A stretch of 64,000 nt of DNA, taken from assembly GCA_963813065.1 (NCBI GenBank), contig CAWEXP010000010.1, forward strand, positions 96,250 to 160,249, read 5' to 3'. This document shows, piece by piece, positions 3,946 to 16,326 of the stretch; position 1 is the stretch's first letter, and each line of letters begins with the position of its first letter. A model generated the notes under the pieces. That model worked only from the letters and a program-made list of their open reading frames with translations. It had not been told where the DNA came from and searched no databases. The stretch comes from Candidatus Kaiserbacteria bacterium (lineage in GTDB: Bacteria > Patescibacteriota > Minisyncoccia > Phycocordibacterales > Phycocordibacteraceae). Position numbers and translations under genes: made by a program.

Positions 3946-3961
3946 TTACGGAAAGCGAAAG

Positions 3962-5233
3962 TTACGTTTGCGCTCTTTCGCGTGCGGTAAGCATTTCCCA
4001 CTGGATAATGCCGATGGTCGTCGAGATAGTGAGCTGGAGATAGAGACTCATCACGACGCCCGCAAGGCCGTAGAGCGGTATCAGGATAACGAGCGAGGCG
4101 ACTAGGGAGAGTGGCGGAATGGTACCCCAATAGATCCAGGACTTCGGCATGAGGTGAACCTTGGACTGCATCGCGGCGCCGAGGAAGTTGCCAGGGAGGA
4201 TGAATGCGAGGGTGAACGCATAGAACTGCGTGACCGTGATAGCGGCGTGATACTTGGGGAAGACGAAGGTGAAGACGTAAGGCGCGAGGAGCGCATACGC
4301 GGTCGCTGTGACGAGCCCGATGACGAAAAGAAGGAAGAGTCGCCCGTATATTTGAGTATTGATTTCGAATATGGTCCGGTGCGAGAGCTTGGGGACGGCG
4401 ATAGGCACGATATTTTTTGCCCACGCGCGGATCTGGTCGAGTGGGCCGGTCGCGAGATTGTAGACCGCGACGGGTATGGGCCCGAGGAAGTGGAAGATGA
4501 ACAGGTCGTCAACATATTTAATGATGGTATTCAAAAGGCCCGCGAAGGTGAGGTGGCGGCCATAAGAGATGATGCGTGGATCGTGAGTCGTATTGGGCGA
4601 ATAGCGACGGAGCGTCACGCGATGCGCGACGTAGCGTGCCAAGGTCCACGAGCCGAAATAGGCGAGGAGCAGGACATAGAGATTGTGGGTGAGCACCACG
4701 GCCGCGGCCACGACCACGGTGCTGAAGAGTTGTCCAACGACGAAATAGACTGTGGACGCGCGAAAATCTTTCTTGCCCTGGAGGAAGGTCTGGAAAAGTG
4801 AGAACGGATCCATGATGGGCACGAAAAGTGCCGCGAGGACGAGCGCCCACGCGAGTACGCTGTTCCCTTGGAGGAAGTAATAACCTGCCACGAGGAGGCC
4901 GCCACCGAGACCCAGAAGTCCCCAGCGCATCTTCTCCCGCAGAGCGATAAGGAACGAGCCTTCGCTACCGCGCGCTACGCCGGGCCCGAGGGTGGTGTTG
5001 ATGCCCGAGAGTGTTGTCAAGGTCAGGATGCTAATGACGGCGAGGACGTAATCGTACGTGCCATACACCGCGGGCGAGAGGAAGTTCGCGAAGAGGATAA
5101 CGAGGAGGAGGGAGGAGGCGCTGGCGGCGAACTGTCCCGCGGTGACCCAGAAGCCGCTGGTCGTTAAATAGACCATATCGGTCTTGGTATAGCGCTCCGT
5201 CGAGCGCAGGAAGGAGATAAGCCGTTCTTTCAT
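3962..5233 (-). CDS. Polysaccharide biosynthesis/export membrane protein (Wzx-like flippase, MOP superfamily)
   Basis: About 12 predicted TM helices; N-terminal MKERLISFLRSTERYTKTDMVYLTTSGFWVTAGQFAASASSLLLVILFANFL resembles the start of O-unit flippases. Confidence 0.55.
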   Translation of the reverse strand: MKERLISFLRSTERYTKTDMVYLTTSGFWVTAGQFAASASSLLLVILFANFLSPAVYGTYDYVLAVISILTLTTLSGINTTLGPGVARGSEGSFLIALREKMRWGLLGLGGGLLVAGYYFLQGNSVLAWALVLAALFVPIMDPFSLFQTFLQGKKDFRASTVYFVVGQLFSTVVVAAAVVLTHNLYVLLLAYFGSWTLARYVAHRVTLRRYSPNTTHDPRIISYGRHLTFAGLLNTIIKYVDDLFIFHFLGPIPVAVYNLATGPLDQIRAWAKNIVPIAVPKLSHRTIFEINTQIYGRLFLLFVIGLVTATAYALLAPYVFTFVFPKYHAAITVTQFYAFTLAFILPGNFLGAAMQSKVHLMPKSWIYWGTIPPLSLVASLVILIPLYGLAGVVMSLYLQLTISTTIGIIQWEMLTARERAQT

Positions 5234-10361: not shown

Positions 10362-10622
10362 ATGTTCTATCTATACGTACTCAAGAGCGATAAAGATCAA
10401 GAATTGTATATAGGTTCGACCAACAATCTCCGTCGCAGGATTAGCGAACATCAACAAGGTAAATCTTTTTCAACTTCCTTTCGAAGGCCTTTTGCTTTGG
10501 TGTATTACGAGGCGTATAGGAACGAGACAGACGCTCGTACGCGTGAGCACAGGTTGAAATTACGAGGACAAGCCCGACGCCAGCTATTGGCGCGCATTGA
10601 ATTGAGCATAGGAACTGAATAA
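10362..10622 (+). CDS. GIY-YIG nuclease family protein (small, 86 aa)
   Basis: YLYVLKSDKDQELYIGSTNNLRRRISEHQQG is a textbook GIY-YIG motif. Confidence 0.7.
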   Translation: MFYLYVLKSDKDQELYIGSTNNLRRRISEHQQGKSFSTSFRRPFALVYYEAYRNETDARTREHRLKLRGQARRQLLARIELSIGTE

Positions 10623-10629
10623 AGTTATC

Positions 10630-10763
10630 TCGCACACCCAACTGCGCATCGTGTCTTTTGCTTCCACGGAAGCGATGGAGAAATATTATTGTTATCGAAT
10701 TTATTGATTGTGGTAAAAATTTAGCGAAGACACACTAGAAGCAATGCGCAATTGGGTGTGCGA
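10630..10763. mobile_element. MITE-like element of about 134 bp with 20-bp terminal inverted repeats and a 6-bp GTTATC target-site duplication
   Basis: Left TIR TCGCACACCCAACTGCGCAT (10630-10649) versus reverse complement of the right TIR ATGCGCAATTGGGTGTGCGA (10744-10763) gives 19/20 matches. GTTATC lies directly outside both ends (10624-10629 and 10764-10769). Confidence 0.5.
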
Positions 10764-10894
10764 GTTATCCACACATCGAGAAATAATTCGCGCATATTTT
10801 TTTCGCGCGAGTGATAATACAGAGCAGAAACGTTTGCGTGATATTTTTTCTCGCAAACGGGTCGACTATACCAGCCATCATTCATACACAACAC

Positions 10895-10963
10895 CATGGC
10901 AAAGAAGGCAAAGAAGACGAAGAAAGTCGCAAAGAAGGTTGCAAAGAAGAAGTCTCGCCGCTA
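10895..10963 (+). CDS. Tiny lysine-rich ORF (MAKKAKKTKKVAKKVAKKKSRR, 22 aa); speculative
   Basis: ATG-initiated, very basic, and followed immediately by a strong hairpin terminator. No recognisable RBS. Confidence 0.2.
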
Positions 10964-10976
10964 GTTCGGCAAAGAC

Positions 10977-11006
10977 GCAAAACGCTCCCCTCCGGGAGCG
11001 TTTTGC
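10977..11006 (+). terminator. Rho-independent-type hairpin (13-bp perfect stem GCAAAACGCTCCC / GGGAGCGTTTTGC, 4-nt loop)
   Basis: Perfect inverted repeat read directly from the sequence, located just before the secA start. Confidence 0.45.
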
Positions 11007-11021
11007 GTTATAGTGCACACC

Positions 11022-13604
11022 ATGTTCAACCCGCTGTCCCGCTTCTTCTCTAAGAACCAATCCGCGGCCTTTCTGAAGGCTGCGGCCTCGGTCGTTTCTG
11101 CCGCAGGAGCACTCGAAGCCGAGCTGGAGAAGCTCTCGCAGGAAGACCTGCGGGCGAAGGTTGCCGAGCTGAAGGCGCGCGCAGGAAACGGCGTTCCCGA
11201 AGCCGATATTCCGCTTGTGTTTGCGCTCGTGCGTGAGGCGGCGCGCCGCACCCTCGCCCAGCGCCCTTTCGATGTTCAGCTCATCGGCGGTCTCGCGCTC
11301 GCGCGGGGCAAGATTGCCGAGATGCGTACGGGCGAGGGCAAAACCTTGGTTGCAACTCTGCCTGTCACCCTCGCTGCGCTTGCGGGGAAGGGGGTGCACA
11401 TCGTGACGGTGAATGATTATCTTGCGCGTCGTGACTCCGCATGGATGGGGCAGATCTATGACTATCTCGGGCTCTCGGTCGGCGTGATTACCTCGAGTGG
11501 TGCATATCGCTACGATGCCTCGCATGTCGAGAAGAAAGAAGATGCCGAGCGCGACGCCGCCGGGTCGTTCAAAGTTTTTTATGATTTTTTGCGTCCTTGC
11601 ACCAAGCGCGAAGCGTATGCGGCAGACCTCACCTACGCGACCAACAACGAGCTCGGGTTCGATTATCTGCGCGACAACACTGCCTACACCGCCGAACAGA
11701 TTTCTCAGCGTGGCCACGCCTATGCCATCGTCGACGAGATTGACTCAATCTTGATTGACGAAGCGCGCACCCCGCTCATCATCAGCGGACCGGCCGGCGA
11801 CTGGGGAATCTCTATCAGCAATTTGCGCAGATCGTACATGGTTTTAGTAAGGATGAGGATTATACGGTCGACGAGAAGCAAAAAGCCATCCAGATAACCG
11901 AAGCGGGGATGAAGAAAGCCGAACAGGCCCTCGGGATGGAAAATCTCTACACCGAAGGCGGTATCAAATATGCGCATCACCTCGAGACCGCGGTGCGCGC
12001 CGCGGCACTCTTCCACAAGGATAAAGAGTACGTCGTGAAGGATGGTGAGATTATGATTGTTGACGAATTCACGGGCCGTATGCAGCCCGGTCGCCGTTGG
12101 AGCGAAGGTTTGCACCAGGCGATTGAAGCAAAAGAAGGCGTATTGGTAAAAGAAGAGACACGCACCTATGCCTCGGTCACGTTCCAAAATTATTTCCGCA
12201 TGTACGAGAAGGTCGCGGGCATGACCGGTACCGCGCTCTCGAGCGAGGAAGAATTTTTCACCGTCTATGGGCTCGATGTGGTCGTCGTCCCGACGCACCG
12301 GCCCTCGGCGAGAAAAGACTTTGATGATCTCATCTTCCAGACTGCGGCCGGGAAGTATCGCGCAGTGGCCAAGCGGGTCAAACAATTCCACGAGAAGGGC
12401 CAGCCAGTGCTCATCGGCACGGTCTCGATCGAGGACAACGAGCTCGTGAGCCACTATCTCGATTCTGCGGGCGTCCCGCACGAGGTGTTGAACGCCAAGA
12501 ATCATGAACGCGAAGGCGAAATCATCGCCGAGGCAGGTGCGCCCGGGCCGCGTGACGGTCGCGACCAACCTCGCGGGCCGCGGTGTGGACATCAAGCTTG
12601 GTGGCGCTCTGGCAACTGTAGAGTCTCGCGCGCTCGTGGTGGAGAAAGGCGGCTTGGCGGTCATCGGCACCGAGCGGCACGACGCGCGCCGCATCGACAA
12701 CCAGCTCCGCGGACGTTCCGGCCGCCAGGGCGACCCGGGCGAGACGCGGTTCTTCGTCTCGCTCGAGGACAAACTCATGCGCGTCTTCGCGAGCGAGACG
12801 CTGAAGCGCGTGATGGGCGGCTTCGGCCTCCCCGAGGACGAGCCGATTGAGAGTGGGATGATTACTAAGTCGCTTGAGAGCGCGCAGGAGCGTATCGAGG
12901 GATTCAACTTCGATTCGCGCAAGCAGGTGCTCGCCTACGACGACGTGATGAACACCCAGCGTCTCTCCATCTACGCGCGCCGTCGCCGCGCCCTGCTCGG
13001 CACAAACGAGGAGGTTGTCGAGGAGGCGCGCACACTGCTTCGTGGCGAAAATACGGAAGTCAGACTTCCGTACCAGGTAGGGAAGTCTGACTTCCGTACT
13101 ATACTGGAGGCCAAGCAGGCAGAACTCGGCGAGCAGTTCATACCGTTGCTGCGCCGCCTCATCTTGCAGGTCATAGACACCTTCTGGCTTGAGCATCTCG
13201 ACACGATGGAGTACTTGCGCCGCTCCGTGTCGCTGCGCGCCTACGGCCAGCGCGATCCGCTTATCGAGTATCGCCGCGAGGGCTTGCAGCGCTTCCGCGC
13301 GATGGAGGAGGGCATCGCGCGCATGTTTGGCGAGACACTCCCCAATCTCACCCTCGCGCAGGACGCGGCCATCAAGCAGGAGGAGGCGCGGCTACGCGCG
13401 CAGCTCGAGAAGGCGGGCAGCGCATCGTTGTCCCCGGCGGGGGGCAAGGAGAGTGCCGTTGGCGCTGCGCATGCGCCCATCGTCAACGCGACCGGCCACG
13501 GCAGGAACGATGTGGTCACGGTCAAGAAGGGCACCGAGACGCAAACTATTAAATATAAAAAGGCCGAGGCCCTCCTCGCCGAGGGCTGGGAATTGATGCC
13601 ATAA
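11022..13604 (+). CDS. secA: Preprotein translocase ATPase SecA, interrupted by two single-base frame shifts (near 11797 and near 12545). The middle 0.75 kb is in another frame and the two shifts compensate.
   Basis: The three listed ORFs (11013-11897, 11909-12850, 12504-13604) together carry contiguous SecA motifs: [39 protein letters not shown] | LGNLYQQ...[44 protein letters not shown] | [45 protein letters not shown]. Both junctions sit in G/C homopolymer-like runs. Confidence 0.85.
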
Positions 13605-13640
13605 GCACGAAATTCGAAGCTCGAAATACGAAACAAATAA
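13604..13640. repeat. Left arm of the inverted repeat flanking the four-helix-bundle gene (AAGCACGAAATTCGAAGCTCGAAATACGAAACAAAT)
   Basis: Its reverse complement recurs downstream at 14013-14072 (AAGCACGAAATCCGAAAATCGAAACAAAT...). Confidence 0.45.
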
Positions 13641-13643
13641 AAA

Positions 13644-14012
13644 ATGACAGAAACGAAAAAAGCAGCCCGATACGACTTAGAAGAGCGTACATTTACATTC
13701 GCGAAAGACGTACGGTTGTTCGTGCGTACGATACCTCGTTCTGTAGCAAATCAGGAAGATACCAGTCAACTCGTTCGCTCTTCTGGCTCGGTCGGTGCAA
13801 ACTACATAGAGGCGAACGAGGCTCTGAGCAAGAAGGACTTTCTCATGCGGATAAAAATTGCACGGAAGGAGGCCAAGGAGTCTGCATTTTGGCTCAAATT
13901 GATTGACGCGGGCAGTGTTCCTGCAGTGGAGGAGAGACGGAAGTTGCTCCAACGTGAGGCAGATGAGCTTATGTTTATTTTGAGTGCCATTATGCGTAAG
14001 AGCATGGGTTAG
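13644..14012 (+). CDS. Four-helix-bundle protein (TIGR02436; 23S rRNA intervening-sequence protein family)
   Basis: YDLEERTFTFAKDVRLFVRTIP...QLVRSSGSVGANYIEANEALSKKDFLMRIKIARKEAKESAFWLKL is the family signature. Confidence 0.75.
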   Translation: MTETKKAARYDLEERTFTFAKDVRLFVRTIPRSVANQEDTSQLVRSSGSVGANYIEANEALSKKDFLMRIKIARKEAKESAFWLKLIDAGSVPAVEERRKLLQREADELMFILSAIMRKSMG

Positions 14013-14072
14013 TTTCTGTTTTTCGTGCTTCGGATTTGTTTCGATTTTCGGATTTCGTGCTTCGGATTTTTT
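14013..14072. repeat. Right arm of the inverted repeat flanking the four-helix-bundle gene; contains a tandem TTCGTGCTTCGGATTT x2
   Basis: See the left arm at 13604-13640. Confidence 0.45.
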
Positions 14073-14151
14073 AATGCTAGGCCATGTAATTGTCCCCTCC
14101 CTTGTTTCTGGCGGGCCTTGTGCTCCGTTTGGATGCGGTATCATATGCTCC

Positions 14152-14826
14152 ATGAAGAAAATATTCTGGATATCAGGCTTGCTCGCGGCTGCGTCGCTTA
14201 TCGTTGTCATTTCTCCATTCTCGATGAGCGCGCCGGAGACGCGAGCGGCGACCGTTATCTCGACCGGTGGCCTCAAGAGCGCCGTCGTGAGCCTCGCGAG
14301 CTTCTTCAAGAACCAGAAGTACGAGTACGTGGACGATGCGACCACTACCACCGCCCGCTACAATGGTGCGAATAGTACCTGGATTACCGCCTCCGGCTCT
14401 CCCTTCTCCACTACGGGGACGATACTCGTGAGCGGCGCGGTCAAGGTGGACCTCGCGACGGGCTTGTGGTGGAGTGACAGGACCTCCTCCACTACGGATA
14501 ATCAATTCACCGAGGTATTCACGGGCGGCAAAGCCACCGGCATAACGGGCGGCAACTCCCTCGCGGTCTGCGCTGCCTTGAACGCTGCAAATGGCGGTGC
14601 TGGATTCGCCGGCCACAACGACTGGTACCTGCCATCGCAGAAGCAGCTCATGCAGGCATATATAGACGGATCAAATAACAACCTGCCTAATCCCGGCAAC
14701 AACTTCTGGTCGTCTACGGAGTACTACGGTACTCCGGCTAGCGCCTGGGGCGTGTACTTGAACAGCGGCTACACGGGCAGCAACGCTAAGGTGACGCTCG
14801 GCTATGTTCGTTGCGTTCGTCCCTGA
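14152..14826 (+). CDS. Secreted DUF1566 (Lcl C-terminal domain) protein. The true start is probably Met 57 of the listed ORF (MKKIFWISGLLAAAS...).
   Basis: Signal peptide; motifs GLWWSD, NDWYLPSQKQLMQAY, FWSSTEY, AWGVYLNSGY, VRCVR are characteristic of DUF1566. Confidence 0.5.
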   Translation: MKKIFWISGLLAAASLIVVISPFSMSAPETRAATVISTGGLKSAVVSLASFFKNQKYEYVDDATTTTARYNGANSTWITASGSPFSTTGTILVSGAVKVDLATGLWWSDRTSSTTDNQFTEVFTGGKATGITGGNSLAVCAALNAANGGAGFAGHNDWYLPSQKQLMQAYIDGSNNNLPNPGNNFWSSTEYYGTPASAWGVYLNSGYTGSNAKVTLGYVRCVRP

Positions 14827-15600: not shown

Positions 15601-16326
15601 AAACTAGGACACGGCGTGTCCTAAATTTAGAGTTCGATGCTTTTGCTCTCGCTGGCGATAATTGGATCCGAAATAATGGAGCGTATTTCTTTCTGTTGTT
15701 CTTGGGTCGTGCCAAGAACTGGGCGTAATTCACTCATCTGCAAAATGGAGGGAAAATTCTTAGACTCATTGTAGTCGAGATAACTACTCCAGCGATAGGC
15801 ATGCAATTCGTCGAGTGCATCTTTTGCATGGCGAACACCTCCCTGTCGCCATTCAGGATGGCTCAAATCAAGGGGATTAAGATGAATATAGTAAGGAACA
15901 TACATAAAATGTGCATCACGAGTGACGAGAACCTTTCTGAAAGTTCCTTGCCAGAGAACGCCAGAGCGTTGATATTTTTCATTTACATATTTCGCGTAGC
16001 CCATATTCAGTTTCCGCATGAATAAAGAGAGCGAGCCTTCTTTTGTGGGGGAGACGAGCAAGTGGTAGTGGTTTGGCATGAGTGCGTACGCATGAATGTG
16101 CACAAGGAGATCCCGTTTATGCGGTGCCTCACGTGCTTTCAGTATATAGTTTGGCGCCGAGCAAGTATCATTGAATATGTACATATCATGGATAAAACGA
16201 AGATAGTCTCCGTCTTCCATAAAGACTTTTCGTTTATCGACACCCCGATTTACCAAGTGATAAAACTCCATCGAATGTCATATTAGCAAGCCGTTTCAAA
16301 CTAGGACACGGCGTGTCCTAAATAAG
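15601..16326 (-). mobile_element. REPtron 1: RayT/IS200-type Y1 transposase gene flanked by identical about 27-bp direct copies of palindrome REP1 (TAGGACACGGCGTGTCCTA)
   Basis: REP1 lies at 15605-15623 (immediately 3' of the stop) and at 16302-16320 (5' of the start). The extended identical flanks are AAACTAGGACACGGCGTGTCCTAAAT. Confidence 0.65.
15627..16271 (-). CDS. REP-associated tyrosine transposase (RayT/IS200-like, Y1 HUH) copy 1
   Basis: HUH motif NHYHLLV, and Y-motif HAYRWSSY. N-terminus MEFYHLVNRGVDKR is typical of Y1_Tnp. Confidence 0.75.
   Translation of the reverse strand: MEFYHLVNRGVDKRKVFMEDGDYLRFIHDMYIFNDTCSAPNYILKAREAPHKRDLLVHIHAYALMPNHYHLLVSPTKEGSLSLFMRKLNMGYAKYVNEKYQRSGVLWQGTFRKVLVTRDAHFMYVPYYIHLNPLDLSHPEWRQGGVRHAKDALDELHAYRWSSYLDYNESKNFPSILQMSELRPVLGTTQEQQKEIRSIISDPIIASESKSIEL

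Follow-up and report, generated by a model that had tools for sequence, protein, structure and literature searches.

In a 64,000-nucleotide stretch of a Candidatus Kaiserbacteria bacterium genome (contig CAWEXP010000010.1, positions 96,250 to 160,249; the whole stretch is hereafter referred to as the window), a segment of ~470 bases at 13602-14072 on the forward strand, lying directly after the secA gene, consists of a small four-helix-bundle gene placed between two inverted arrays of tandem heptamers. The segment represents one copy of a widespread, horizontally spreading and promoterless cassette of the intervening sequence (IVS) type, which would probably be transcribed with its host operon and whose stem would be processed as in the IVSs of ribosomal RNA (rRNA). 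Comparison with related genomes shows the cassette to be a discrete and, as judged from its base composition, foreign segment inserted exactly at the secA stop codon, at a junction which is empty in most of the relatives. A mobile IVS-like cassette outside rRNA had been proposed in an earlier note on this DNA, and the proposal is strongly supported by the recurrence of the cassette in unrelated operons of many phyla and by the empty secA-obg sites. Further support is provided by a genome with two copies that share the cassette only, by derivatives without an open reading frame (ORF) and by the plan of the 23S IVS of Coxiella.

The secA stop codon, TAA at 13602-13604, provides the first bases of the left arm, and the four-helix-bundle ORF ends with TAG at 14010-14012. 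Its 122-aa product matches PF05635 (23S_rRNA_IVP) with E 8e-13 and TIGR02436 ('four helix bundle protein') with E 2e-20, the scores of 49 and 73 bits exceeding the respective cut-offs of 33.8 and 24, and the nearest solved structure is PDB 2RLD (E 1.6e-9), an entry with 5 chains; the protein belongs to the nucleic-acid-binding Avd/S23p pentamer family. The cassette segment forms a low-GC island of ~45-50%, while values of 0.60-0.70 are observed for the 3' end of secA upstream and of 0.57-0.62 downstream, the mean of the window being 0.566. No promoter-like site was found in or adjoining the cassette, and the gene strand shows no terminator-like site from secA to the right arm. The location described in the earlier note, between secA and a DUF1566 gene and outside rRNA, agrees with the position of the secA stop codon, with the PF07603 match of the following gene (14152-14826) and with Rfam, which finds no rRNA and only one tRNA in the 64-kb window. 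A second copy of the four-helix-bundle gene is absent from the window, and the Rfam E-value scan of 13450-14250 for a known RNA family in the arms returned noise only.

Three inverted pairs of increasing length and decreasing complementarity bracket the gene: 24 nt (13603-13626/14039-14062, 88% complementary), 31 nt (13608-13638/14034-14064, 74%) and 51 nt (13610-13660/14019-14069, 71%). Together with the PF05635 and TIGR02436 matches, they confirm the reported bracketing of a gene of the 23S-IVS family by inverted repeats; the flanks had in addition been described as reverse complements of each other, which is correct as regards the presence of inverted repeats but not their exactness, since the arms are only 71-88% complementary. 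The 16-mer TTCGTGCTTCGGATTT occurs in two exact copies (14022-14037 and 14054-14069) with its best reverse match upstream at 13610-13625, and yields 6 matches where 0.87 are expected, a number reached in none of the shuffles. When the arms alone are paired as RNA (13598-13643 with 14018-14066), a duplex of 37 pairs with an energy of -38.0 kcal/mol is obtained, as against -18.9 +/- 3.5 kcal/mol for shuffled arms, of which 0/1000 were as stable. A chance inverted repeat is ruled out by the 16-mer match count and the arm-duplex shuffles. In the fold of the whole 496 nt (minimum free energy (MFE) -154 kcal/mol, z -2.8) the ORF is enclosed by the arm stem, as the earlier note had anticipated for the region 13600-14075.

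The distribution of this arrangement was examined in relatives of the protein. At least 8000 matches were returned by the protein search, the closest among the matches listed being those of Kaiserbacteria, Paceibacterota and Moranbacteria, and an exhaustive search (E <= 1e-3) gave 6624 clusters of PF05635-type relatives at 50% identity. One genome per species was scanned, with 571 relatives confirmed among the first 600 candidates, and the best 80 of these 571, which are 57-73% identical, were analysed as loci (individual loci are given L numbers). They come from at least 8 phyla, among them Patescibacteria, Planctomycetota, Desulfobacterota, Gammaproteobacteria, Bacteroidota, Verrucomicrobiota and Chlorobiota. 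The upstream and downstream 90-nt flanks pair better than their shuffles (z <= -2) in 61/77 loci, with z reaching -16, and 71/78 score >= 30 when the upstream flank is aligned locally, at the DNA level, with the reverse-complemented downstream flank. The canonical loci share a left-arm consensus AAATYC-GAANNNC-GAAATCC-GAAATTC-GAAACAA and a right-arm consensus TTGTTTC-GRATTTC-GATATTC/GTGCTTC-GAATTTC-GGATTT, an ORF of ~366 nt, a post-stop spacer mostly of 23-36 nt and, in 32/37 cases, a gap of exactly 6 nt from the left arm to the ATG. The 7-nt period is evident from the self-identity at lag 7, which is 0.49 upstream and 0.47 downstream, compared with 0.38 or less at other lags and 0.28 at lag 7 within the ORF. 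Pairing between the 5' end of the ORF and the post-stop spacer, which in the window involves codons 2-5 (13647-13657) and positions 14009-14019, is a weak general signal (mean z -1.45, below -2 in 12/38 loci) and is not significant by the z measure for the window copy.

A hidden rRNA context is ruled out: Rfam detects only tRNA in the window and no rRNA in the 16 related loci that are without an obvious same-strand neighbour or lie on short contigs, and a search of all 80 loci for conserved 23S motifs gave a single weak match, with 2 mismatches in L042, that was not borne out by Rfam. The provision of stop codons in all three frames was also considered as a reason for the heptamers and discarded, as such stops occur in 19/78 upstream arms where ~17 are expected from shuffles. 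At two loci (L007 3756-4570 and L072 3735-4811), the four-helix-bundle ORF stands between two ORF-less hairpins, one of right-arm type upstream and one of left-arm type downstream, a layout that suggests rearrangement between neighbouring elements. Some family members are longer, such as P0158 with 425 aa and the four-helix-bundle domain at residues 309-424, and several others carry 30-70 additional N-terminal residues; such proteins could have arisen by read-through fusion to the upstream gene, or their start codons may have been called inside the left arm.

The insertion of the cassette was analysed at the secA-obg junction in 31 Kaiserbacteria-like loci obtained by a metagenome search with the SecA C-terminus (54-65% identity). 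The obg start lies no more than 6 nt past the secA stop in 15/31 of these loci, typically as TAA-T-ATGGCATTTGTTGA, which constitutes the empty site, and four further loci have a secA-obg spacer of 36-55 nt. Only the window, L002, L094 and L112 contain the cassette at this junction, and in every case it starts right at the stop codon (TAA followed by GCACGAAA...). No target-site duplication is visible when the filled sites (window, L002, L094) are compared with the empty ones (L084, L085, L107 and others). In L094 the arms are kept around an ORF which an in-frame internal deletion has cut to 63 aa. The junction of L106 carries a member of another PF05635 subfamily (30% identity), whose AGCAGTA heptamer arms supply the last secA codons and the stop. 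Other occupants are REP-like palindromes or other hairpins (L087, L088, L091, L092, L098, L110) and, in L082, an SDR gene. By this comparison the secA-obg junction is a hot spot for insertion. The Lcl_C (DUF1566) gene that follows the cassette in the window is missing downstream of secA in L082, the closest relative, and no Lcl_C gene accompanies the cassette of L002 and L094.

Evidence of movement is also provided by one metagenome-assembled genome containing two loci, L039 and L049, which lie in unrelated operons and share only the ~470 nt of the cassette (3960-4425 and 3960-4433, respectively) at 76% identity. L039 carries, between two other genes of the same operon, a 140-nt ORF-less derivative made up of the left arm, an ATG remnant, spacer and the right arm (MFE -49 kcal/mol, z -5.1). 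Such mini hairpins apart from any four-helix-bundle ORF number ~11 in the fetched loci, one of them being in the secA locus L110, which has no four-helix-bundle gene. The proteins of the TA-type cassettes from Planctomycetota, Bacteroidota and Saccharibacteria form one lineage, being mutual nearest neighbours in 9/9 cases, and therefore the arms and the ORF travel together. No relatives were found among the viral contigs of IMG/VR. A defence-system or phage protein was considered and rejected, as there was no PADLOC or PHROGs match and only distant relatives (33-46% identity) occur on plasmids and in one phage record.

The cassettes are mostly oriented with the genes around them: the nearest long ORF is on the same strand upstream in 66/76 loci, downstream in 59/74 and on both sides in 54/72. 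About half of the canonical loci have the upstream stop codon at the outer arm edge or no more than 5 nt from it, often as the TAA of a TAAATYC unit, and the next gene mostly starts 3-30 nt past the right arm. Upstream neighbours fall into more than 130 Pfam families and downstream ones into 94, and they represent unrelated operons. Eight loci of Planctomycetes have the cassette exactly between leuC and leuD; the identity of their four-helix-bundle proteins (64-87%) tracks that of LeuC/LeuD (69-86%), a correspondence consistent with long vertical inheritance at one site. The arms are of the CG type in two of these loci and of the TA type in six, the switch having been made in both arms.

Conservation was compared as mean pairwise identity over the 26 loci with ORFs of equal length. 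The value is 0.76 for codon positions 1+2 as against 0.43 for position 3, and the four-helix-bundle protein is therefore under purifying selection. With 0.70 for the left arm and 0.75 for the right, the arms are by this measure conserved about as strongly as the non-synonymous sites, and both the ORF and the arms of the cassette family are, on these identities, under selection. Pairing and covariation were counted in the ungapped alignment A3 of 36 arm pairs. Standard pairs occupy 79% of the cells in register and 24-55% with the partner slid by 1-3 columns, the percentage paired being biased in that complementarity served to select the downstream anchor. Covariation scores 0.193 compared with 0.118 in shuffles, 0/500 of which were as high. 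At all four heptamers the G of the CGAA core and its partner change together, the pair being G-C in 19-24 of the loci, U-A in 6 of them and C-G in 2-5, and whole lineages have switched both arms from CGAAA/TTTCG to CTAAA/TTTAG, ACAAA/TTTGT or CCAAA/TTTGG.

Distant members of the family (30-46% identity) possess inverted tandem-heptamer arrays with unrelated units in 9/11 cases. Two Planktothrix loci carry CCCCAAT (4-6 copies) together with CGTAAAT (3-4 copies), with duplex z values of -11 to -14, and Nostoc punctiforme carries GTCGGAG (z -10). CAAAATT is found in Aulosira and Nostoc flagelliforme, AAGTAAA or AAAAGTA in two Nostocales loci, GATGAAG in Chlorohelix and AGCAGTA in L106, while the flank arrays of the Pseudanabaena and Bernardetia members are weak or different. 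CCCCAAT, which thus flanks the Planktothrix four-helix-bundle gene, is presumably the STRR1 unit of the STRR sequences (repetitive sequences of short units repeated in tandem). From these loci it is the architecture, and not the unit sequence, that appears to be general to PF05635. Distant four-helix-bundle genes on cyanobacterial and Chloroflexota plasmids (L162-L170) are located inside CRISPR-cas, DISARM/BREX and restriction-modification operons, in positions between cas2 and cas1, csx2 and cas1, DrmD and PglX/MmeI, and a helicase gene and an N6-methylase gene, one of them adjoining TnsA and XisH/XisI. Such locations may explain the reports of 23S_rRNA_IVP as 'CRISPR-associated'.

In the explanation that we favour, the cassette, having no promoter or terminator of its own, would be transcribed as part of the host operon. 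The arms would zip in the transcript into an interrupted stem of ~35-40 bp, which would fold the 470-nt insert away from the host cistrons and bury the start codon of the cassette, which is without a Shine-Dalgarno (SD) sequence and lies 6-7 nt from the helix. The stem would be cut by RNase III, as experiments have established for the rRNA-borne IVSs of Coxiella, Leptospira and Salmonella, and the cleavage would excise the cassette RNA from the secA transcript or at least part its upstream from its downstream portion. With such cleavage, insertions would be tolerated in rRNA as well as in operons, and the four-helix-bundle mRNA would be released for translation. RNase III processing of the secA transcript is plausible by analogy with the precedent of the rRNA IVSs only.

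Several observations weigh against this explanation. The central heptamer is unpaired in 26-28 of the 36 loci, and the 79.0% of paired cells exceed the 74.8% obtained on shuffling across loci by only ~4 percentage points. The sense-strand duplex is more stable than the antisense one in 50/77 loci (P 0.007), a modest preference, while the antisense duplex of the window copy reaches -35.2 kcal/mol, close to the value for the sense duplex; the wobble positions are also balanced, with 274 sense-only and 246 antisense-only cases (P 0.24), the complementarity being essentially strand-symmetric. With such symmetry and a near-equal antisense duplex, selection for an RNA stem on the sense strand is not established. 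The primary sequence of the arms and their 7-nt period are, in the alignments, conserved beyond the needs of a stem, and the RNase III model does not account for the period. The 64-kb window shows no RNase III signature. The orientation bias could just reflect the need of a promoterless ORF for read-through transcription. As regards mobility, the only ORF of the cassette is the four-helix bundle, no transposase, recombinase or reverse transcriptase (RT) having been found in association with it, and the filled and empty secA-obg sites show no target-site duplication.

Many of the same observations favour a serious rival, compatible with the IVS-type explanation, in which the arms act at the DNA level as terminal inverted repeats (TIRs) or opposed arrays of protein-binding heptamers of a transposon-like element, mobilised by the four-helix-bundle protein itself or by an enzyme in trans, the RNA stem being a by-product. 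Strand-symmetric complementarity, an arm sequence as conserved as the non-synonymous codon positions, and constant 4-nt cores (CGAA/TTCG) that are kept while the variable triplets and the central unit are often unpaired all point in this direction, as do the concerted change of unit type in all units of both arms, the multiple diverged copies per genome and the ORF-less miniatures resembling MITEs (miniature transposable elements with inverted repeats). We nevertheless consider it rather unlikely, as neither a target-site duplication at the filled secA-obg sites nor a transposase, recombinase or RT with the cassette is observed, and PF05635 is without any catalytic activity known to us. The arm complementarity is moreover kept at seemingly vertical and immobile loci such as leuC-leuD, and the spacing from arm to ATG is fixed. 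At the RNA level, processing has been described for the rRNA-borne relatives (PMC4990558).

The arms could alternatively belong to the host, as a domesticated hairpin that stabilises mRNA within the operon or serves in translational coupling, the four-helix-bundle gene being incidental cargo. The sites are suggestive in this respect, since the arms directly adjoin the stop codon upstream and the ribosome-binding region downstream, some cassettes and mini hairpins lie between subunit genes of one enzyme (leuC-leuD, methylmalonyl-CoA mutase, xanthine-dehydrogenase-type), and the arms outlast decay of the ORF in L094 and the mini hairpins; the same roles have been proposed for cyanobacterial STRR hairpins, as in hupS-hupL (PMC2670836). 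A tailored regulator would hardly be expected in more than 130 unrelated contexts, which indicate opportunistic insertion, and most relatives do without the cassette at the same junction (for example TAA-T-ATG at secA-obg). Purifying selection on the ORF argues against mere cargo and the low GC against an origin in the host, so that this account is improbable for the cassette as a whole, although a domesticated function is possible for some copies. The least probable of the rivals by far is an orphan remnant of a diversity-generating retroelement (DGR), suggested by the homology of PF05635 with Avd (PMC10053308) and by the C-type-lectin-like (Lcl_C/DUF1566) domain of the next gene, which would be the target. 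No template-repeat copy of the Lcl_C gene exists in the window, where the best self-match is 29 nt, and no RT-like YxDD ORF is found nearby; the closest relatives of the cassette reside in unrelated operons without RT, and the secA relatives L002 and L094 have the cassette and no Lcl_C gene. DGR ancestry was thus rejected for the window locus, in which neither an RT nor a pair of template repeat (TR) and variable repeat (VR) is present.

A broader proposal, tentative and more doubtful than the IVS-type explanation, is that PF05635 genes with inverted heptamer arrays constitute an unrecognised class of autonomous mobile elements, which would unify rRNA IVSs, STRR hairpins and inverted heptamer repeats. 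Each subunit of the pentamer would recognise one heptamer of the 7-nt-periodic arms, and the unit sequence would evolve together with the protein subfamily; since the arrays have 3-10 units in other subfamilies, the match of five heptamers with a pentamer stays a speculation. Spread or maintenance would be mediated by the protein, which might work through the stem-loop RNA after its excision, much as Avd acts on DGR RNA. If this is true, IVSs with and without an ORF, STRR hairpins and the excess of inverted heptamer repeats share one origin.

The cassettes are of wider relevance in that the rRNA IVS is recast as one landing place of a general element, and the heptamer-repeat hairpins (STRR and inverted heptamer simple-sequence repeats) receive a candidate explanation. 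Natural experiments on the movement of the cassette and the role of its protein are offered by junctions such as leuC-leuD and secA-obg and by hosts in culture, among them Wenzhouxiangella and Nostoc. For annotators it is of interest that the cassettes split operons and may create RNA processing sites.

Table 1. Coordinates of the cassette parts and of the adjoining genes in the window
Feature	Position	Strand	Basis
secA, 3' part	12501..13604	+	tblastn with SecA of L002; ORF list
Left arm, five tandem heptamers TAAGCAC GAAATTC GAAGCTC GAAATAC GAAACAA (GAANNNC type)	13602..13636	+	sequence and inverted repeats
A-rich linker ATAAAAA, 7 nt, from arm to ATG	13637..13643	+	sequence; no Shine-Dalgarno
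Four-helix-bundle gene, 122 aa, PF05635 / TIGR02436	13644..14012	+	profile matches; homologue of S23p/Avd-type pentameric bundles
Post-stop spacer, degenerate or duplicated units TTTCTGT TTTTC GTGCTTC GGAT	14013..14035	+	direct and inverted repeat search
Right arm, inverted heptamer array TTGTTTC GATTTTC GGATTTC GTGCTTC GGATTTTTT	14036..14072	+	sequence, repeats, duplex
Lcl_C/DUF1566 gene, outside the cassette	14152..14826	+	Pfam PF07603, E 2.4e-17; host-like GC

Further features were noted in the vicinity of the cassette. The secA gene (11013-13604) is split over three frames, the matches of tblastn with an intact relative being at 11034-11852 (frame 3), 11807-12547 (frame 2) and 12501-13598 (frame 3); the two frameshifts which this implies in an essential gene would represent assembly indels or a pseudogene. 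Immediately 5' of secA, a tiny lysine-rich ORF (MAKKAKKTKKVAKKVAKKKSRR) in 10897-11008 is followed by a perfect 15-bp hairpin (10975-10989/10994-11008). Farther upstream, in the region 10362-10767, a small GIY-YIG nuclease gene of 86 aa is located in another low-GC island, with a 31-nt inverted repeat of 84% complementarity 3' of it (10626-10656/10737-10767), and may be another selfish insert. Downstream, in the region 15602-16322, a Y1_Tnp (IS200-like) gene on the reverse strand (15627-16271) lies in a low-GC island. Identical palindromes TAGGACACGGCGTGTCCTA stand on either side of the gene, at 15605-15623 and at 16302-16320, in an arrangement resembling that of repetitive extragenic palindromes (REPs) with their associated tyrosine transposases (REP/RAYT). 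Similar palindromes follow secA in L087, L091 and L098. A link of the cassette with the Y1_Tnp gene was rejected, as these REP-like palindromes are unrelated to the cassette arms.

Among the known systems, the IVSs have been known since 1990, and we know of no explanation for their origin, mobility and ORF. The 23S IVSs with an S23p ORF, as in Leptospira, Coxiella burnetii, Brucella and Xanthomonas, are like the cassette in having a PF05635 ORF of ~120 aa in an element of ~430-470 nt, terminal inverted repeats forming a stem of ~28-40 bp around the ORF, tandem heptamers directly before the ATG with a poor or absent SD sequence, transcription only within a host transcript, and ORF-less versions (PMC4990558). 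The 23S IVS of Coxiella has 428 nt, and RNase III cuts its 28-bp terminal stem in vitro, the ends having been mapped by rapid amplification of cDNA ends (RACE); it has 3-4 tandem GACAGAT heptamers and a poor SD sequence before the S23p ATG (PMC4990558). 16S and 23S insertions with PF05635 ORFs are also known from candidate phyla radiation (CPR) bacteria (10.1101/2024.02.27.582315). The heptamers differ (GAAATYC in the cassette, GACAGAT in Coxiella), the ORF is under purifying selection in the cassette while it is decaying in the Coxiella IVS, and RNase III cleavage, an experimental result for the latter, is a prediction for the cassette. The 23S IVS sits in rRNA (helix 25 or 45) whereas the cassette lies between protein genes of operons, at a stop codon, and it is therefore termed an IVS-type element and not an IVS proper.

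DGRs are common in CPR bacteria, and we know of no function of PF05635 outside them and of no Avd genes enclosed by heptamer arrays. The Avd protein of DGRs is a homologous pentameric four-helix bundle, which binds nucleic acid and, in DGRs, an RT, whereas the cassette stands alone in operons without RT, TR or VR. This homology of PF05635 with Avd has been described (PMC10053308). MITEs share with the cassette the TIRs, the presence of multiple copies at unrelated sites, the polymorphic insertion and the derivatives without an ORF; unlike MITEs and TIR transposons, the cassette is without target-site duplication and without a cognate transposase in the element, a trans-acting enzyme elsewhere being possible. 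The Correia or nemis elements of Neisseria are small intergenic MITEs, which are co-transcribed and form long hairpins that are RNase III substrates. They are similar to the cassette in their inverted termini, in their presence or absence between related genomes and in their occurrence in host mRNAs, but the TIRs of Correia elements are plain and come with a TA duplication, and these elements lack an ORF and are transposon-derived, while the cassette has heptamer-array arms, a gene that is not a transposase and no detectable target-site duplication.

In the accessible literature, neither a link between heptamer repeats and PF05635 genes nor a cassette outside rRNA was found; TIGR02436 was not mentioned in any of the papers searched, and PF05635 in only one of them. 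The STRR heptamer hairpins of filamentous cyanobacteria, which have no ORF and are found in hupS-hupL and other operons, have been proposed to act in transcript stability or translational coupling (PMC2670836), and inverted GGGAATC pairs have been described in Xanthomonas (PMC4692102). Both are like the cassette in their tandem 7-nt units, often in convergent and hairpin-forming pairs of arrays, which are transcribed and lie intergenically inside operons (hupS-hupL, pecE-pecF). The papers on STRR and simple-sequence repeats deal with the repeats alone and draw no link to a PF05635 gene, whereas the arrays of the cassette enclose a conserved ORF. The GAANNNC units of the cassette, found in a Patescibacteria-like genome, are not a described cyanobacterial STRR unit, and the cassette differs from STRR in its fixed length of ~5 units, its fixed spacing to the ATG and a range of hosts extending far beyond cyanobacteria and xanthomonads.

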